DNA from: a virus
Taxonomy: Duplodnaviria > Heunggongvirae > Uroviricota > Caudoviricetes
IMG/VR virus record: IMGVR_UViG_2558309052_000002
DNA length: 40,896 nt
Strand: one strand, 5' to 3'
Part shown: positions 1,285 through 35,877 of the stretch, one piece after another
How positions within the stretch are numbered: position 1 is the first letter of the stretch
Layout of the letters: every line of letters begins with the position of its first letter
The notes under the pieces: model-generated
Seen by the model: only the letters and a program-made list of their open reading frames with translations
The model's database searches: none
Told to the model about the DNA's origin: nothing
Position numbers and translations under genes: made by a program

Positions 1285-1328
1285 ATGAATAACGGGCGAT
1301 AACATAGACAATCCTTTCTTTTCAAAGA

Positions 1329-1355
1329 CGTCGGCACATTGCCGGCGTTTTTTTT
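1329..1355 (+). terminator. Rho-independent terminator of aroA
   Basis: GC-rich hairpin CGTCGGCA-cat-TGCCGGCG (one mismatch) followed by a T8 run, 45 nt after the aroA stop. Confidence 0.7.
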
Positions 1356-1445
1356 CGGACCTTGTGGGGTATTTTTATTAATGGTAGCGTTAATTATCAA
1401 TGTAACTTGTTGATACATAATGTTTATATATAATTAATCAACGGA

Positions 1446-1520
1446 TGATTCACATGAAGAATGATGCGCCGCGCGATAAATGCACTCTATCTTGTGCGAT
1501 AAATGGCATCCACGCGGCGT
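1446..1520. other. putative prophage terminus with repeated transposase-binding-like motifs
   Basis: TGATTCACATGAAG at 1446 resembles the Mu end TGTATTGATTCACTTGAAG. Two direct copies of GCGATAAATG(C/G) about 24 nt apart (about 1471-1510), then CGTTTCATTATTTGAAAAAG. Boundary is an inference; no second end available to confirm a 5-bp target duplication. Confidence 0.4.
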
Positions 1521-1539
1521 TTCATTATTTGAAAAAGAA

Positions 1540-2112
1540 TTACATTTCAGGTTGCGTTATGACAGTCCCAACAGGGTGATAGCGGTAGATCGTTGACAGT
1601 CCAATATCATAGATAATTGCCAGCCGCTTTCTGTCATACCCTTTCTGGAGCAATCTTGCGATCTGCTCATGCTGCTCCTTCGTCAGTTTCGGGCGACGTC
1701 CTCCAACTCTTCCTTGTGCTCGCGCAGCAGCCAGTCCAGCCAGCGTGCGCTCAACTATCAGTTCACGCTCCATTTCTGCCAGTGCACCCATCATATGAAA
1801 AAAGAACCTTCCCATCGGAGTGCTGGTATCGATTGAATCCGTCAGACTGCGAAAATTGACACCTTTTGCGCGTAGCTCTTCTGTGAGAGCAATGAGGTGT
1901 TTCATTCTTCTACCCAACCGATCCAGCTTCCAGACCACCAATGTATCCCCTCTTTTAAGGCACTTTAAAGCGCGTTTCAGGCCTGGTCGTTCCGACTTGG
2001 TTCCGCTCATTTTGTCCTCAAAAATCTGTTCACATCCTGCGCACATTAATGCATTGCGTTGCAAATCTGTGTTTTGGTCATTTGTTGACACACGTATGTA
2101 GCCAATCAGCAT
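1540..2112 (-). CDS. Gin/Pin/Hin-family serine DNA invertase
   Basis: 190-aa product from ATG at 2112 (RBS AGGGAG upstream): MLIGYIRVSTNDQNTDLQRNAL...GDTLVVWKLDRLGR...RSLTDSIDTSTPMGRFFFHMMGALAEMEREL..., co-linear with Mu Gin. The longer ORF in the track (to 2241) is an upstream frame extension. Confidence 0.93.
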   Translation of the reverse strand: MLIGYIRVSTNDQNTDLQRNALMCAGCEQIFEDKMSGTKSERPGLKRALKCLKRGDTLVVWKLDRLGRRMKHLIALTEELRAKGVNFRSLTDSIDTSTPMGRFFFHMMGALAEMERELIVERTLAGLAAARAQGRVGGRRPKLTKEQHEQIARLLQKGYDRKRLAIIYDIGLSTIYRYHPVGTVITQPEM

Positions 2113-2180
2113 TAAAAATACTCCCTTTTGAGTGGTTAAAGTACTGAGATAATGTGGGGAGGATTTGAGAGATAAACGTT

Positions 2181-2696
2181 GGTTTAGGAGAAGGCTCGGC
2201 GCTACCCGTTGGTGTGCCTGTTCCGTGGCCCACCGCCACACCGCCAGCAGGCTGGTTAAAGTGCGACGGGCGCGCCTTTACAAAAGAACAATATCCTGTT
2301 CTGGCCAGAGTCTACCCGACCCTCCGTCTTCCCGATTTACGCGGTGAGTTTATCCGTGGATGGGACGACGGGCGCAAAGTTGATACAGGACGTAAGTTGC
2401 TGTCCGCACAAGGGGCAACGCTGTTAAGAACAGCAATGCTGGATTATTATAACCAGGACACTACGGGAACCTCGGGGATAGTCGGCATGGGATTCAACAA
2501 TGAAGATTCCATTACAGACCTTCGTGAGGGCAGCTTTAAAATGCCGGACGGGACAACATTCAGCGATCCTGTCGTGGCAATGTCAGACAATGGTATGCAG
2601 GCTACTATTCTGACCTCTATCAGAAGCGGGTATGCGAAGGGTATCACTGTCAGACCCCGTAGCATTGCACTTAATTACATTGTGAGGGCAGTTTAA
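2181..2696 (+). CDS. alternative tail-fibre C-terminal variable cassette (A), currently silent
   Basis: Frame open from 2169 with no credible own start. Begins with the shared LGEGSALPVGVPVPWPTATPPAGWLKCDGRAFTKEQ block, then a unique region, ending ...RPRSIALNYIVRAV. Confidence 0.7.
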   Translation, partial: GLGEGSALPVGVPVPWPTATPPAGWLKCDGRAFTKEQYPVLARVYPTLRLPDLRGEFIRGWDDGRKVDTGRKLLSAQGATLLRTAMLDYYNQDTTGTSGIVGMGFNNEDSITDLREGSFKMPDGTTFSDPVVAMSDNGMQATILTSIRSGYAKGITVRPRSIALNYIVRAV

Positions 2697-3310
2697 TGAG
2701 TAACACTGCAGTTCTGGATGAAAACGGTATCGCCACTGTAGCGGGCGATATCACTGTATATCACTATGACGAGGAAACCCGGGAATACACCTCATCCTCT
2801 GTGGAGTATCTCGCCCTTGGGGTGGGTACTCCGGCACATTCGTGCGCCGATGCACCGCCGGAAGCAATTTCGGGTTACGTGGTTTGCCGGACTGCCACGC
2901 TGAACGGGTGGGAGCATGTGCCTGATCACCGCGGCGAGACGGTATACAGCACGGAGAACGGTAACCCCGTTCTGATTACCCAACCGGGTGATTACCCGGC
3001 GGACACCACCACAAAACAGCCAGCCACGCCATGGGATACCTGGAACGGTGAGGCGTGGGTAACCGATACTGAACGGCAGCGAGCCGCAGAACTGGAGGTT
3101 GCCAGACAGCAACGCCAGCAACGGGTGAAACAGGCGATGGCGTCCGTCGATCTTATCAACCTCAAACTGCGTGCTGGTCGCAGTCTGAAACCAGAAGAAA
3201 CGGCAAAACTGAACGCCGTGCTGGATTATATCGACGAGCTGAACGCACTGGATATCAGCAAGGCACCTGAAATCAGCTGGCCGGAAGCGCCACTGGCGCT
3301 TGCCGGCTGA
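2696..3310 (+). CDS. tail fibre assembly protein (chaperone) paired with cassette A
   Basis: 204 aa. ATG overlaps the cassette A stop (TAATG). Resembles phage tail-fibre assembly proteins (Mu U / P2 G type). Confidence 0.75.
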   Translation: MSNTAVLDENGIATVAGDITVYHYDEETREYTSSSVEYLALGVGTPAHSCADAPPEAISGYVVCRTATLNGWEHVPDHRGETVYSTENGNPVLITQPGDYPADTTTKQPATPWDTWNGEAWVTDTERQRAAELEVARQQRQQRVKQAMASVDLINLKLRAGRSLKPEETAKLNAVLDYIDELNALDISKAPEISWPEAPLALAG

Positions 3311-3316
3311 ACGGTA

Positions 3317-3778
3317 TCACGCCGCCCTCACGATATAGTTAAATGCGATATTGCGGGGGCGAGCTGATACATAAGCCCACCAGTCATATCTTTGTGCACC
3401 TTTAGAGGATGCATCAAATATCCACTTTTTGCCATTTAAGACCCCCAGTTGATTAGAGGTTAAAGCGTCACCAAATCCGTATTGTGTAGAGCCGAGCGAA
3501 CTGATATCTCCGGTATCATTATCATCAAAACCGGATACGATAGTCCCTTCCTGAAATGAAAGTAGCGCACGCCCGGTATCAACCTTGCGACCACCGTCCC
3601 ATCCACGGATAAACTCACCGCGCAAATCGGGAAGACGGAGGGTCGGGTAGACTCTGACCAGAACAGGATATTGTTCTTTGGTGAACGTAGCTCCGTTGCA
3701 CTGTAACCAGCCTGCTGGCGGTGTGGCGGTGGGCCATGGAACCGGTACACCAACAGGCAATGCAGAGCCTTCCCCCAA
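3317..3778 (-). CDS. alternative tail-fibre C-terminal variable cassette (B), silent, no ATG
   Basis: 153-codon frame beginning TTG-GGG-GAA (LGEGSALPVG...) 10 nt after the expressed fibre stop; ends ...RPRNIAFNYIVRAA. Diverged homology block (about 85% to A/C). No downstream assembly gene. Confidence 0.6.
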   Translation of the reverse strand: MGEGSALPVGVPVPWPTATPPAGWLQCNGATFTKEQYPVLVRVYPTLRLPDLRGEFIRGWDGGRKVDTGRALLSFQEGTIVSGFDDNDTGDISSLGSTQYGFGDALTSNQLGVLNGKKWIFDASSKGAQRYDWWAYVSARPRNIAFNYIVRAA

Positions 3779-3788
3779 ACCAACGTTT

Positions 3789-5042
3789 CTATGCCGCCCT
3801 TACGATGTAATTAAACGCAATGTTACGGGGACGAATGGTCACATAATTAACCCCATCGCCTCGCGAAGGACCTGCAAATGAAAAACGGGAGAATCCAGGT
3901 TGGTTGTCAACGATTTGGTCATAGTTATTGATTGAATGACCAGACCCAATGTCAAAATTACCTGCGTAATGAGAAAAACTTGTACCATCCTGCCGTGAAA
4001 GCAGATCGCGCCCTGTATCCACTTTTCGCCCGTCGTCCCATCCACGGATAAACTCACCGCGTAAATCGGGAAGACGGAGGGTCGGGTAGACTCTGGCCAG
4101 AACAGGATATTGTTCTTTTGTAAAGGCGCGCCCGTCGCACTTTAACCAGCCTGCTGGCGGTGTGGCAGTGGGCCACGGAACAGGTACACCAACGGGCAGC
4201 GCCGAGCCTTCCCCCAAACCAAGGTAATTGAGGACATCTTTTATACTGCCCTTAGCGATAATAGCGCGACCAATAGCTGTAAGGGTTGCCAGCTCTGCGC
4301 GGTCTGCTCCGGTAAAATAAGGCAACCGATCTGCTGCAGTGGCAAGTCCTGCCAGAGCAGTGAGCGTGGCATCTGCCGGTTGTTTTCCGTTTGCCAGATC
4401 GTATGCAGCCTTGACCGCTTTCGGTGTGGCGGCCAGTATTTCAGACGTGCTGTTGATGGCACTGCTCAATTGTACGGTGCCTTTTGCCGTCAGCGAGGCA
4501 GCAGGCACTCCCGTTATCTGACTCCACGGGTGAGTGTGGCTGACGGGCGCCTTGCCGGCTGCAAGGTCGTATGCAGCCTTGACCGCCTTCGGCGTGGCAG
4601 CCTCAGTTTCTGATTGACTGTCCGTGGCGCTGCTCAGTTGTACGGTGCCTTTTGCCGTCAGTGAAGCCGCAGGCACTCCCGTTATCTGACTCCACGGGTG
4701 AGTGTGGCTGGCAGGCGCCTTGCCGGCTGCCAGGTCGTATGCAGCCTTGACCGCTTTTGGTGTGGCGGCCAGCGTTTCAGAGGTGCTGTTGGTGGCACTG
4801 CTCAGTTGGGTGAACCCCTTAGCTGTCAGTGTCGCGTCCGGGTGGTTACGGGAACGTACGTGTTCAGCCAGTGACTGTGCGGCTTCCTCCGTTTTCTTCT
4901 TCAGCCATTTCGTCCTGTTTGCCAGTTGCCGGGGGGCTCGATTTGATATCCCGTCTGCACCACCCAGAACCGGATCTGATGTCTCCAGTTGATAGATATT
5001 TTCTTCCCACTTTTCTGTTTCATTCAGGTTTCCCATAATCAA
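3789..5042 (-). CDS. tail fibre protein (constant N-terminal part fused to variable cassette C)
   Basis: 417 aa. ATGA overlap with the upstream gpI-like gene; internal 56-aa tail-fibre repeats; C-terminal 140 aa is homology block C plus a unique tip ending ...NIAFNYIVRAA. Confidence 0.9.
   Translation of the reverse strand: MIMGNLNETEKWEENIYQLETSDPVLGGADGISNRAPRQLANRTKWLKKKTEEAAQSLAEHVRSRNHPDATLTAKGFTQLSSATNSTSETLAATPKAVKAAYDLAAGKAPASHTHPWSQITGVPAASLTAKGTVQLSSATDSQSETEAATPKAVKAAYDLAAGKAPVSHTHPWSQITGVPAASLTAKGTVQLSSAINSTSEILAATPKAVKAAYDLANGKQPADATLTALAGLATAADRLPYFTGADRAELATLTAIGRAIIAKGSIKDVLNYLGLGEGSALPVGVPVPWPTATPPAGWLKCDGRAFTKEQYPVLARVYPTLRLPDLRGEFIRGWDDGRKVDTGRDLLSRQDGTSFSHYAGNFDIGSGHSINNYDQIVDNQPGFSRFSFAGPSRGDGVNYVTIRPRNIAFNYIVRAA
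4388..4829 (-). repeat. in-frame tandem repeats (168 bp, about 2.6 copies) inside the tail fibre gene
   Basis: Protein repeat LTAKG(F/T)(T/V)QLSSA.(N/D)S.SE..AATPKAVKAAYDLA.GKAP.SHTHPWSQITGVPAAS occurs twice in full and once in part. Shadow ORFs on + at 4393 and 4729 (336 nt apart) share ARSYAALTAFGVAAS. Confidence 0.85.
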
Positions 5043-5617
5043 CTGCTCCCGTGGTTATAACTGCCATCATGGATGGCGGTATTGTTATAGCGAATGGCCA
5101 CAGACTGATACTCCAGGCTGGCCAGATGGCAGCGGGCCGGTGCAAATGCAGCCAGCGTCTGACGCAGCATCGCGGCCTGATCGTTAGTAATGGGCTGTTT
5201 CAGAATAACGCGATAAACTGCCCAGGCGGCTGCATCTCCATGAACAAACAGTCCGTTATAGCTGCGATTGCCGTCGTAACTGAGACGACCTGTGCCTTCA
5301 ATCAGATCCACTTCACCAAAGCCAAAACGGCGGATAACTTCCCGGATTGACCACGGCGTCCCTTTATACCGGTGCAGTTCGATGGCTGCTTTTATAAGCA
5401 TGCGGCGAACATCGTCCGATTCCGCCAGCTCCCAGCCATCGCCAGACAGTGAGAACTGCTCGCCCAGCCATGGCAGCGCGGAACTGTCGACGATATCGAC
5501 GAGAAAGACCATCAGTACGCTCAGGTCGATGTTATCCAGCCGTCCTGCCAGTCTTCCCAGCGTCCTGAGACTGATATCACCCTCAAGCGGTGGCGGGAGT
5601 TGTAATGGCTCAGTCAT
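5039..5617 (-). CDS. tail/baseplate protein, P2 gpI-like
   Basis: 192 aa; sits between the baseplate J-like gene and the tail fibre as in P2/Mu modules; ATGA-type overlaps on both sides. Confidence 0.7.
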   Translation of the reverse strand: MTEPLQLPPPLEGDISLRTLGRLAGRLDNIDLSVLMVFLVDIVDSSALPWLGEQFSLSGDGWELAESDDVRRMLIKAAIELHRYKGTPWSIREVIRRFGFGEVDLIEGTGRLSYDGNRSYNGLFVHGDAAAWAVYRVILKQPITNDQAAMLRQTLAAFAPARCHLASLEYQSVAIRYNNTAIHDGSYNHGSS

Positions 5618-6713
5618 CAGACACTCCAGTCATGTTAAGAGTGATTGCCGTACAGTTTGCCCATTCGTTTTCTGCCACCACCCGCAGTGCCGGTGTCACC
5701 AGTTCAACCTGGTACACCCCGGAAACGGACAATGCACTGATAATCTGGCTGGGGACAATATCGCGCCCCAGCGTGGCGGCACGTGATGCCACCCAGTTCT
5801 GTATGGCGCTGTTAGCGGCATCTTTTACAGACCTGGCATCCTGATCACGATAGATCGTAATCCTGGCTTCAATGGTGTAATCCACCTTCACTGGTGTTTT
5901 AGCCCGCACTGTATCAGTGAGTGGCCTGACTTTCTCATCAGAGCAGAAACTCTCTACCAGCGTGAGAACACCGCCGTCCGGCAGACCGGTACTGAGCAGC
6001 GGATACAGATCTACGGTCCCGGGAACCGGGGAAAGCACAGCAACATCGACAATGTTGGGATGGGCCTGCATGGCATGAAAGCGGTATGCGCCACGGCTTC
6101 CGGCATTGGTGAATGACTCCGGGGCCAGCCTGATACGCTCCCGGAGCCTGTCATCGTCTTCCTGTTCTGAACCGCCGGAACTGGCCATCAGATTGCTCAC
6201 CAGCAGGTTAACGTTATCAATCTCATCGAGTAACTGACTGACCTGCGCAGGTTGCCAGCCGTTACCAGCGGTACCGGGTTCGGTACAGGTGGCCGTGACA
6301 TTGACCAGCAGCAATCCGGCCTTCAGTACCACATCTGTATCGGTGGCAAAAATAACGCTGTCGGAAGCGCTGACGCGGGTGCCTGCCGGGATCAGCACAT
6401 CAATGGCCAGTGCCTCATCTACGGAGAACTGGAGCGTGGTGGTGGCAGGCTGCGCGGCAAGACGGTATACACCGACCAGTTCACCGAGGTAATCAATCAT
6501 CGGCTCACGGGCAAAGGCGACCAGATTCTGCTTTGCTGCCTCCTGTACCGCAACCCTGACCAGCATTTCGCGATAGGCCCACAGATCAATCAGCAGACGT
6601 TCTGCCTGTGCCGGGTACAGCGTTTTGCCGGTATCCGCTTCATACTTCGCAATCATTTCTGCCGTGATTTTGTCGGCATCGCGTTCAATAAAATCGGGTT
6701 CTGTCAGCGCCAT
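5610..6713 (-). CDS. baseplate protein J-like
   Basis: 367 aa; conserved position between gpW-like and gpI-like genes; overall resemblance to baseplate J family. Confidence 0.8.
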   Translation of the reverse strand: MALTEPDFIERDADKITAEMIAKYEADTGKTLYPAQAERLLIDLWAYREMLVRVAVQEAAKQNLVAFAREPMIDYLGELVGVYRLAAQPATTTLQFSVDEALAIDVLIPAGTRVSASDSVIFATDTDVVLKAGLLLVNVTATCTEPGTAGNGWQPAQVSQLLDEIDNVNLLVSNLMASSGGSEQEDDDRLRERIRLAPESFTNAGSRGAYRFHAMQAHPNIVDVAVLSPVPGTVDLYPLLSTGLPDGGVLTLVESFCSDEKVRPLTDTVRAKTPVKVDYTIEARITIYRDQDARSVKDAANSAIQNWVASRAATLGRDIVPSQIISALSVSGVYQVELVTPALRVVAENEWANCTAITLNMTGVSDD

Positions 6714-34107: not shown

Positions 34108-35877
34108 ATGACCCCGGCACTGACTGAAAAACTGGTTGAAACAGCCCGCGCGGCACGTGACGCGGGGCATGGTAAACGCGGTGCAATATACGACGCTGCC
34201 TGTGCTGAACTTGGCATGTCCCGCGCCACTCTGCTGCGCAGGCTGAAGGAGGTATCTGTGACTGATAAACGCAAAAAACGCGCCGATGCCGGGCGCAGCG
34301 CCCTGACCCGCGACGAAGCCGCGCTGATATCTGCCACACTGCGTGAGGCCACCCGCAAGAACGGTAAGCGTCTCTATTCCATCGCAGATGCAGTGGAAAC
34401 CCTGCGGGCTAACGGCTTTATCACCGCAGGCAGAACAGATGAAACCACCAGTGAGTTTTTCCCGTTGTCTGAAGATGCCATCAGCCGTGCTCTGCGTAAC
34501 TATGGCCTGCACCCGGAACAACTGGATGCCCCTGCACCACATACCGAAGTGGCCAGTCTGCATCCCAATCATGTCTGGCAGATTGACGCCTCACTCTGCA
34601 CGCTTTACTACCTGAGCAATGGACATAAAGGGCTGCAGGTGATGGACAGCGCGAAGTTCTACAAGAACAAGCCCGCTAACCTTGCCCGTATCGCCAGTGA
34701 CCGCGTGTGGAGTTACGAGATTACCGACCATGCCAGCGGCTGGATTTACGTTGAGTATGTGACGGGCGCGGAATCAGGTGAGAACCTGTGTTCTGTGCTT
34801 ATCAACGCCATGCAGGAGCGTGGCGGCGCAGACGTGCTGCACGGCGTGCCGAAAATACTCTATCTCGACCCCGGCTCGGCAAACACCGCGGGTATGACGA
34901 AAAACATGTGCCGCTCACTGGGCATCGACCTGATAGCGCACAAGCCGCATAACGCCCGCGCCACCGGACAGGTGGAAAAGGCGCGTGACATTATCGAACG
35001 CAAGCTGGAGCCGGGTCTGAAGTTCCGGCCGGTTCACAGTCTGGAAGAACTCAACGCGCTGGCCGCGAAATGGCGCAGCCACTTTAACGCCACGGCTGTT
35101 CACAGCCGCCACGGTAAAACCCGCACGGATATCTGGCTGAAGATTACTGCTGAGCAGCTGAAAAAAGCGCCTTCCGTTGAGGTATGTCGTGAACTGGCTG
35201 TGGCGGCACCAGAACTCCGCAAAGTCACGCCAAAACTTCGTGTCTCGTTCCGGGGCACTGAATTTGACGTATCAACGGTACCGGGCGTACTGGTTGGTGA
35301 AAAACTGATGATTACCCGTAACCCATGGCGCAGCGATGTGGCACAGGTGGTTCTGACCGGTGAGGACGGCCACGAGACGTTCTTCCTGGTCGAAGAGGTC
35401 AGAAAGAACGAGTTTGGCTTTGCTGAAGGCGCGGCGGTATTTGGCGAAAGTTACAAAGCCCTGCCGGAAACCCCGGCACAGATGGCGGCAAAAGAAACCG
35501 AAGCGCTGGTTACCGGTACAGACAACGCCGCAGATGCAGCCGCCGCACGCAAGGCGAAGGCGCTGCCGTTCGGCGGGCGGCTTGACCCGTATAAACATAT
35601 CGACGACACCACACTTCCGGCCTATATGCCGAAGCGTGGTCAGGCCTCTGACGTACGCGGGCCGCGCACTGAACAACGTCCCATGACTCATGTGGAGGCC
35701 GCGAAAGCCCTGCGCGATAAGTTCAGCGCCGACGGCCTTACCTGGACGCCGGAACATTACCGCCAGTTAACGGCACAGTACCCGGACGGCGTACCGGAAG
35801 CCGCACTGGATGAAGTCATGGCCACGCTGACCACACCGGCCCGCAGCAGTGTTATCAGCATTGTTAACGGCAACTGA
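34108..35877 (+). CDS. DDE transposase (MuA-like function, rve-type core)
   Basis: 589 aa; N-terminal HTH-like region, candidate catalytic acidic residues (HVWQIDAS, YLDPGSANT) and gene order directly before an AAA+ MuB-like ATPase. Shorter than MuA (663 aa). Confidence 0.8.
   Translation: MTPALTEKLVETARAARDAGHGKRGAIYDAACAELGMSRATLLRRLKEVSVTDKRKKRADAGRSALTRDEAALISATLREATRKNGKRLYSIADAVETLRANGFITAGRTDETTSEFFPLSEDAISRALRNYGLHPEQLDAPAPHTEVASLHPNHVWQIDASLCTLYYLSNGHKGLQVMDSAKFYKNKPANLARIASDRVWSYEITDHASGWIYVEYVTGAESGENLCSVLINAMQERGGADVLHGVPKILYLDPGSANTAGMTKNMCRSLGIDLIAHKPHNARATGQVEKARDIIERKLEPGLKFRPVHSLEELNALAAKWRSHFNATAVHSRHGKTRTDIWLKITAEQLKKAPSVEVCRELAVAAPELRKVTPKLRVSFRGTEFDVSTVPGVLVGEKLMITRNPWRSDVAQVVLTGEDGHETFFLVEEVRKNEFGFAEGAAVFGESYKALPETPAQMAAKETEALVTGTDNAADAAAARKAKALPFGGRLDPYKHIDDTTLPAYMPKRGQASDVRGPRTEQRPMTHVEAAKALRDKFSADGLTWTPEHYRQLTAQYPDGVPEAALDEVMATLTTPARSSVISIVNGN

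Follow-up and report, generated by a model that had tools for sequence, protein, structure and literature searches.

A tail-fibre gene that is followed by a start-less open reading frame, with a single tail-fibre assembly gene (tfa) on the opposite strand, raises the question of whether such a locus is decayed or is a working switch, and of how each of its fibre tips would obtain an assembly factor. This question is considered here for the left end of the IMG/VR virus record IMGVR_UViG_2558309052_000002, a stretch of 40,896 nucleotides (nt) that is called the window below. The locus is that of prophage Phi2 of the Escherichia coli sequence type 131 (ST131) strain EC958, and Phi2 is a BcepMu-like transposable phage. 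With a probability that can be put at about 0.8, the region is a three-site, four-isomer tail-fibre switch, i.e., a small multiple inversion system of the Min or shufflon type under a Din-family serine invertase. The start-less cassette is a stored tip. The sole real oddity of the locus is that three tips come with a single assembly gene.

Crossover sites, tip cassettes and isomers of the Phi2 switch

The features on which the argument depends are listed below with their position in the window and their strand.

1540-2112, minus strand: serine DNA invertase (pin/gin-like, Din-family), 190 aa, begins MLIGYIRVSTNDQ; Pfam Resolvase 8e-51 and HTH_7 1e-12, PHROG 125 DNA invertase 1e-94
2167-2192, plus strand: crossover site A, GAGAGATAAACG-TT-GGTTTAGGAGAA; its outer half stays put on the pin side, and cassette A starts with its inner half
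2181-2696, plus strand: tip cassette A, Collar domain; 172 codons counted from the site; silent in this isomer
2696-3310, plus strand: tfa, 204 aa; Pfam Caudo_TAP 5.6e-27, PHROG 105 3e-87
3317-3781, minus strand: tip cassette B, Collar domain; silent in this isomer; convergent with tfa, with 6 nt between the stops
3770-3795, minus strand: crossover site B, GGCATAGAAACG-TT-GGTTTGGGGGAA; the fibre stop TAG falls in its outer half; used in isomers st2 and st3
3789-4220, minus strand: tip cassette C, Collar domain; the expressed tip of this isomer, joined to the constant part
4209-4234, minus strand: crossover site C, TCCTCAATTACC-TT-GGTTTGGGGGAA; constant/variable junction of the fibre gene
4221-5042, minus strand: constant fibre part (Sc), 273 codons, with three 168-nt Phage_fiber_2 repeats
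3789-5042, minus strand: fibre gene, 417 aa; a Phage Tail Collar domain at the C-terminus after three Phage_fiber_2 repeats
2180-3782: unit S1, 1603 bp, made up of A, tfa and B and invertible through sites A x B; st2 and st3 found at 100% identity
3783-4221: unit S2 (C), 439 bp; S1+S2 (2042 bp between site centres) flipped by sites A x C, giving st1

An earlier, sequence-only reading of this DNA had described a fibre gene that ends with cassette C and is followed after 10 nt by a cassette B beginning TTG-GGG-GAA with no ATG. All these coordinates hold: the fibre stop TAG lies at 3789-3791, the gap covers 3779-3788, and the open reading frame of cassette B (3317-3778, 153 codons) opens with TTG GGG GAA at 3778. 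This opening is the inner half of a crossover site. Alignment of the three junctions reveals that each cassette begins with a 26-bp site of the Din type, in which a variable outer half is followed by a TT core and by the inner half GGTTT(A/G)GG(A/G)GAA. The core plus inner half, TTGGTTTRGGRGAA, is found exactly three times in the window, once per cassette start, against 0.03 occurrences expected by chance. The inner half-site encodes G-L-G-E, and all three sites are read in one frame. Site A lies in inverted orientation to B and C, with a TT core of the same polarity in the three sites. Furthermore, in Table 3 of the EC958 report (PMC4134206), the Phi2_3prime site is identical to the recombinant form of site A and the Phi2_5prime site corresponds to the outer half of site C.

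Tips A, B and C share a 5' block of 229-244 nt (85-94% identity) and the C-terminal motif RPRxIAxNYIVRA, and each of them gives a Pfam Collar match of about 1e-15. A search of solved structures with tip C retrieved two matches in total, with no Mu fibre between them; tip C resembles the T4 gp37 tip (2XGF, E 1e-14), terminal NIAFNYIVR strand included. These matches place the three tips in the gp37-like collar type, which is defined by a Collar domain and this C-terminal strand. It had been considered that 3317-3778 might encode a divergent assembly chaperone. This is false, as cassette B is a Collar tip that matches PHROG 523 ‘tail collar fiber protein’ (1.7e-65), with no match to PF02413 or PHROG 105. 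The Caudo_TAP product is that of 2696-3310, which a homologue search confirms as the sole Caudo_TAP/PHROG 105 gene of the window and which lies, as had been noticed, on the strand opposite to the fibre gene, behind cassette A. The tfa start overlaps the stop of cassette A (TAATG), and tfa has its own Shine-Dalgarno sequence, GAGGG, read 7 nt 5' of the ATG. A search of solved structures with Tfa gave no meaningful match. A likeness of Tfa residues 40-92 to the tip collar (28%, E 0.1-0.2) was dismissed as non-significant.

Exchange between sites A and C inverts A-tfa-B-C, and exchange between A and B inverts A-tfa-B. As site A is inverted relative to both others, four isomers are predicted, and two invertase steps bring the stored tip B to the expression site:

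st0 (window): Sc-C, B, tfa'A'; fibre of 417 aa; tfa not co-oriented with the expressed tip
st1: Sc-A-tfa, B', C'; fibre of 445 aa; tfa co-oriented
st2: Sc-C, A-tfa, B'; fibre of 417 aa; tfa co-oriented
st3: Sc-B, tfa'A', C'; fibre of 428 aa; tfa not co-oriented

The sequences of st1 to st3 were modelled by cutting at the TT cores, and the fibre is in frame in the modelled fusions as well as in st0. Each of the three alternative isomers is present over 2742 of 2742 nt, in one piece, in at least eight complete E. coli genomes, and at least 40 genomes match st0 perfectly over 2742 nt. For example, st1 is found in JJ1887 and, at 100% identity, in the EC958 chromosome. Isolates from the same study can differ: 4/4 carries st0 and 4/1-1 carries st1; in the same way, U14A carries st0 and U12A, U13A and U15A carry st2.

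Junctions were counted with 120-nt queries, in the band of at least 99% identity, among about 600 records carrying the locus; the counts are per record and slightly confounded by two-cassette relatives and multi-copy genomes. Sc|A is found in 201 records, Sc|B in 197 and Sc|C in 160, so that each tip sits at the expression site in roughly one third of the genomes. On the pin side, 107 records have L|A and 153 have L|B. Counting isomers by a coverage of at least 80% (with 2742-nt or 4336-nt queries) was dropped, since st0 and st3, like st1 and st2, share 84-90% on one strand and the pieces were joined. It should be kept in mind that one assembly shows just one of the four states of this locus.

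The sequence-only reading had also suggested that B could be a reservoir reachable only by homologous recombination. That tip B would reach the expression site solely through RecA-type exchange between the direct B/C repeats (244 nt, 85% identity) could draw on these repeats and on the existence of a two-cassette relative without C, but it is refuted by several observations and now retains hardly any credibility. Tip B has its own consensus crossover site, inverted relative to site A. The Sc-B isomer, whose junction is present in 197 records, keeps C inverted on the pin side, as two inversions predict, and is identical to the two-inversion model over 2742 nt. Such perfect matches put the joints at the sites instead of within the 229-nt homology, which speaks for site-specific and against homologous recombination.

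The assignment to the Din family relies on the enzyme, the sites and the inversion itself. The invertase combines an N-terminal resolvase domain, starting with YIRVSTNDQ, and a C-terminal helix-turn-helix, and its gene lies beside the segment. The sites consist of two imperfect 12-bp half-sites round a 2-bp core and agree with those of Table 3 of the EC958 report, where they are listed beside the Sandmeier consensus (PMC4134206). The isomers match exactly the models cut at the core, and the literature provides both inversion within a culture of EC958 and confirmation by polymerase chain reaction (PCR). The locus is not a two-state switch like those of Mu, P1 and e14, which have two sites, two tips and a tfa per tip, as it has three sites, three tips and one tfa. 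It is a multiple inversion system by its more than two sites, its overlapping segments (S1 and S1+S2) and its four isomers.

In matching genomes, the RefSeq annotation by PGAP calls the silent start-less cassettes as separate ‘phage tail protein’ genes through internal GTG or TTG starts (2214-2696 and 3317-3778), so that gene content seems to vary among isomers of the same strain. For annotation purposes, start-less ‘phage tail protein’ open reading frames that follow a fibre gene should be taken for stored tips with their own crossover sites, and not for pseudogenes or traces of decay.

One genome has an unusual arrangement. In NZ_CP023849.1 (strain 4/0), the Sc|B and Sc|C junctions are 2 kb apart on opposite strands and L|B is 43 kb off, near the Phi1 region (~957.7 kb; 1001-1003.5 kb). 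This pattern could be due to a second copy, to a large invertase-driven rearrangement between prophages or to a misassembly.

The surroundings of the switch are those of the tail end of a minus-strand prophage, beyond aroA, which forms the left edge of the window:

1-1284: aroA
5039-5617, minus strand: gpI, prophage tail region
5610-6713, minus strand: baseplate J, prophage tail region

The prophage spans 1380-40896, adjoining aroA, with late genes leftward and early genes rightward (transposase at 34108-35877); the right end of the window falls within it. The three tandem 168-nt repeats that encode the Phage_fiber_2 repeats of the constant part (4384-4887) are 61-84% identical. Copy numbers of this repeat are higher in L018, L089 and AR_0067, and repeat number thus sets shaft length variation. 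Escherichia phage PhiKM is 100% identical to the window across about 34 kb. It was rejected as a proof of infectivity because its draft genome is partial and gapped, with a break within the conserved tip block, and a literature search for a paper on this phage found none.

Single-tfa arrays in related loci and constraint on their tips

Tips, tfa and invertase genes were mapped in about 150 IMG/VR loci and several phage records. Three architectures are encountered: a simple tip-tfa pair; the Mu/P1-type layout tip-tfa|tfa'-tip'|invertase; and arrays in which one tfa goes with 2-9 start-less tips at spacings of about 8 nt. Examples of arrays are L009, L010, L020 and L144, a Klebsiella record with two tips and one tfa, and a P1-like phage with four tips and one tfa. 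The arrangement of Phi2 is therefore present, at the level of sequence, in related prophages and phage records. An assembly gene follows many of the tips: in a non-redundant set of 183 intact tips, tfa comes next after 114 and a further tip after 43, and 19 converge on the 3' end of tfa. When phage tips without any tfa in the phage were searched for, just three ambiguous cases were found.

The geometry of the arrays determines which tips can share a transcript with tfa. After fusion to Sc, any tip of a tandem run that precedes a tip-tfa unit is followed by tfa in the same orientation. The only tip that can never be co-oriented with tfa is thus the one that abuts the tfa 3' end, which is tip B here: tfa is co-oriented with an expressed A in all cases, with C in st2 and with B in none.

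These tfa-convergent tips do not look like remnants. Where a tip converges on the tfa stop, it is intact in 18 of 19 contexts and broken in one. For one type of such tips, compared between diverged arrays, synonymous divergence (dS) is 0.40-0.47 and non-synonymous divergence (dN) 0.015-0.018, giving a dN/dS of 0.03-0.04, and the variable region behaves likewise. In other arrays, dN/dS is 0.12-0.15 for B-type tips and 0.10-0.19 for C-type tips. Furthermore, near-identical A-tfa units are paired with three different intact tips in the position of B (in the window, in L015 and in L018/L019). As the tips that converge on tfa are intact and under strong purifying selection, the single-tfa layout appears, from these sequence comparisons, to be functional and not decayed.

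The possibility that the locus has lost assembly genes, raised by the sequence-only reading, finds no support here, since C can be placed directly upstream of A-tfa (st2), single-tfa arrays are widespread, and tips in the position of B are mostly intact and constrained in relatives. In its fullest form, this possibility holds that B is a functionless remnant of a Mu-type tip-tfa|tfa'-tip' ancestor in which the tfa of B was lost by deletion, that st0 and st3 are unproductive and that infectious phage arises only from st1 and st2. The Mu/P1-type layout with two convergent tfa genes is indeed the commoner one (49 contexts versus 18 with a tip convergent on tfa). Within its own lineage, cassette B displays seven non-synonymous and six synonymous differences, a divergence too low to gauge constraint. 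However, both the open reading frame of B and its crossover site are intact, the dN/dS values given above for B-type tips elsewhere and for other tips in the same position indicate constraint, three different intact tips occupy this position beside near-identical A-tfa units, and the design with two tips and one tfa recurs in Klebsiella and in a separate E. coli insertion. A dead end of this kind is therefore improbable.

The separate insertion is L155 (NZ_CP032261.1 2925244-2932363; strain AR_0067), a relative inserted in fliZ, which is annotated as truncated. Its fibre is longer (542 aa), and next to one tfa it has just two cassettes, of which B is expressed and A is silent. Compared with the switch of the window, what it lacks is exactly the site-bounded unit S2, i.e., cassette C, as if whole cassettes were gained or lost at sites. 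In the same way, the end of each tip (…VRAA-stop) followed by AAACG forms the outer half-site for the next cassette (3770-3795 here, and in IMG/VR arrays such as L010). A tip thus forms a complete module that brings both of its half-sites, and this accounts for tandem stacks of up to 8 tips about 8 nt apart. Cassettes with both half-sites could be gained and lost as units, in an integron-like manner.

The tfa-convergent tips of several relatives (L009, L012, L022, L024, L074, L079; L020, L021, L026, L144) carry an HxH motif (EKHRHIV or EDHAHGL) that resembles the metal-binding HxH of the T4 gp37 and gp12 needles. This motif is absent from the translations of tips A, B and C of the window.

One assembly gene for several tips

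If the layout is functional, the tips that are expressed while tfa points the other way must either be served by the single Tfa or do without it. One answer, for and against which the chances appear about equal, is that Tfa acts on the conserved collar and C-terminal scaffold common to the tips and hence serves all three of them. In st0 and st3, the shared Tfa would then need a transcript from outside the late operon, or a supply in trans.

Several comparisons are in favour of a shared Tfa. In simple loci, 46 Tfa proteins of one cluster (at least 90% identical) are encoded directly downstream of 19 unrelated tip variable regions, and Tfa pairs that are 94-98% identical are found behind tips that are just 14-26% identical. 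As near-identical Tfa proteins lie behind unrelated tips, Tfa does not track the receptor-binding part in this family. Furthermore, tips that have their own tfa and tips that lack one agree in the consensus of the collar and of the C-terminal part. A B-like tip whose variable part is 74% identical has its own tfa in another phage (L013), and C-like tips are directly followed by tfa in L096 and L099.

Other observations weigh against it. A promoter and terminator scan of 1285-5100 gave nothing above chance, and no sigma-70-like promoter on the pin side was seen to lead into A-tfa. In 55 loci, the sequence 5' of pin shows the site and the pin leader with no evident inward-facing element, so that a promoter for tfa in st0 and st3 was not found. 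The N-terminal domain of Tfa is its variable, fibre-binding part (summarised in the Pam3 paper), which argues for cognate and not for generic recognition. The data on promiscuity come from another Tfa cluster than that of the window, and the six close relatives of the window Tfa are all found behind A-type tips. Lastly, the frequencies of the isomers in lysogens are uninformative on which of them give infectious particles.

Most of these points would also fit tips B and C, or at least B, folding and trimerising without Tfa, tfa being then of use to tip A alone, for example as a chaperone or adhesin retained on the A fibre. Such tips would account for B being never co-orientable with tfa while the tips of relatives in this position remain intact and strongly constrained. 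The description of Tfa N-domains as fibre-specific, the retention of the Mu Tfa on the virion (Pam3 paper), the exclusive association of the close relatives with A-type tips and the lack of a detected promoter for tfa in st0 and st3 all go in this direction. However, A, B and C share their scaffold with tips that always carry tfa, with no feature specific to a class, and the tips directly followed by tfa (114 of 183) include the B-like and C-like ones mentioned above. It is generally known that the tip of T4 gp37, a homologue of the present tips, needs gp38, and that lambda Tfa can replace gp38. Tfa-independent tips are thus possible but rather unlikely, and less so than a lost or decayed locus would be.

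A supply in trans by tfa genes of co-resident prophages (Phi1, Phi4 and others in ST131), for B and for C in st0, is slightly more doubtful still than the loss of tfa genes discussed above. Many unrelated tips are found paired with Tfa proteins of this family, and the part of the EC958 report that deals with these prophages (PMC4134206) describes several of them with the same Collar-type fibre and suggests that invertases act in trans. This possibility is at odds with the biology of a transposable phage, which moves between hosts and cannot depend on resident prophages. Moreover, the late genes of the other prophages are off unless these are also induced, and the same architecture exists in many unrelated hosts.

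Taken across arrays, the tfa-convergent tips may, tentatively, be considered as a conserved and selected gp37-like class that is made without a co-transcribed chaperone, either because one promiscuous Tfa, independent of orientation, serves a stackable library of tips or because these tips are chaperone-independent. The occurrence of up to nine tips per tfa and the constraint on tips that are never co-transcribed with it suggest a collar-generic Tfa or some gp37-like tips that need none. Either answer would ease the swapping of receptor-binding tips in engineered phages and tailocins.

Two signals of the region, neither of them above chance in the scan, are recorded here as side observations. 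The only sigma-70-like match of the plus strand (TTATCA-16-CATAAT, 1394-1421) lies between aroA and the 3' end of pin and is directed towards antisense pin and then A-tfa. On the minus strand, a terminator-like hairpin with a T-run (3200-3219) is found about 100 nt past the stop of cassette B, antisense within tfa; it could halt late transcripts before their antisense passage through this gene.

Comparison with known inversion systems

The closest point of comparison is Phi2 itself. The EC958 report (Forde et al. 2014, PMC4134206) deals with the same locus: PacBio reads revealed a 2067-bp segment in both orientations within one culture, and the outer site sequences of its Table 3 agree exactly with those given here. 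The relevant part of this paper lists two sites and presents alternate alleles generically, as mirror images with a cognate minor fibre gene; site B inside the segment, the set of four isomers and the lone tfa have no mention in that part. A preprint on ST131 wound (‘Bone’) isolates confirmed switching by PCR.

A very similar design was described in a P2-like prophage of the enteropathogenic E. coli (EPEC) strain E2348/69 as a ‘shufflon’ (Goldberg et al. 2014, PMC4272514). Like Phi2, it relies on three inverted repeats of partial homology, whose two overlapping inversions yield four variants, all confirmed by PCR, with three C-termini of one fibre protein; the inversions are of about 2200 and 1800 bp, versus 2042 and 1603 bp here. 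This system belongs to another strain and another prophage and is likened to Phi2 by its description, and the assembly gene is absent from its discussion (PMC4272514).

The Min system of plasmid p15B also resembles Phi2 by its Din-family invertase, its more than two crossover sites and its shuffling of the 3' ends of a tail-fibre gene. It was the subject of work by Sandmeier, Iida and Arber in 1990-92 and has six sites and 240 isomers. Phi2 has three sites and four isomers and is a Mu-like element, whereas p15B is P1-like. The invertible segment of carotovoricin, of 790 bp, may be too small for tfa. The position of tfa is not stated in the carotovoricin paper.

The G segment of Mu with Gin, the C segment of P1 with Cin and the P segment of e14 with Pin share with Phi2 a serine invertase gene beside the segment, sites of 26 bp (core of 2 bp) at the joint between constant and variable parts, and the in-frame exchange of tips. 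However, these systems have two sites, two isomers and a tfa behind each tip (U/U', tfaE/tfaP), whereas Phi2 has three tips and one tfa. The statement of the sequence-only reading that variable tips have their own chaperone thus stands for Mu and P1, and for e14 as well. The tips of Phi2 also differ from those of Mu, P1 and e14 by being of the T4 gp37/Collar type. They have in common with T4 gp37 the collar domain and the terminal NIAFNYIVR strand, and the tfa product is a Caudo_TAP protein like lambda Tfa, which goes with lambda Stf; the tips of Phi2, at 144-172 aa, are much shorter and are devoid of HxH.

Beyond the Din family, the R64 shufflon (Rci) shares with Phi2 its many start-less 3' cassettes, its single constant 5' gene part and its overlapping inversions. 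It belongs to another family, with a tyrosine recombinase, 19-bp sfx sites and the pilV adhesin.

The design of the locus is thus already known, its inversion is partly published for Phi2 itself, and the switch is an ordinary member of the multiple inversion systems of Din invertases. What keeps its interest is the conserved architecture with one tfa and many tips, in which strongly constrained tips are never co-transcribed with the chaperone gene.

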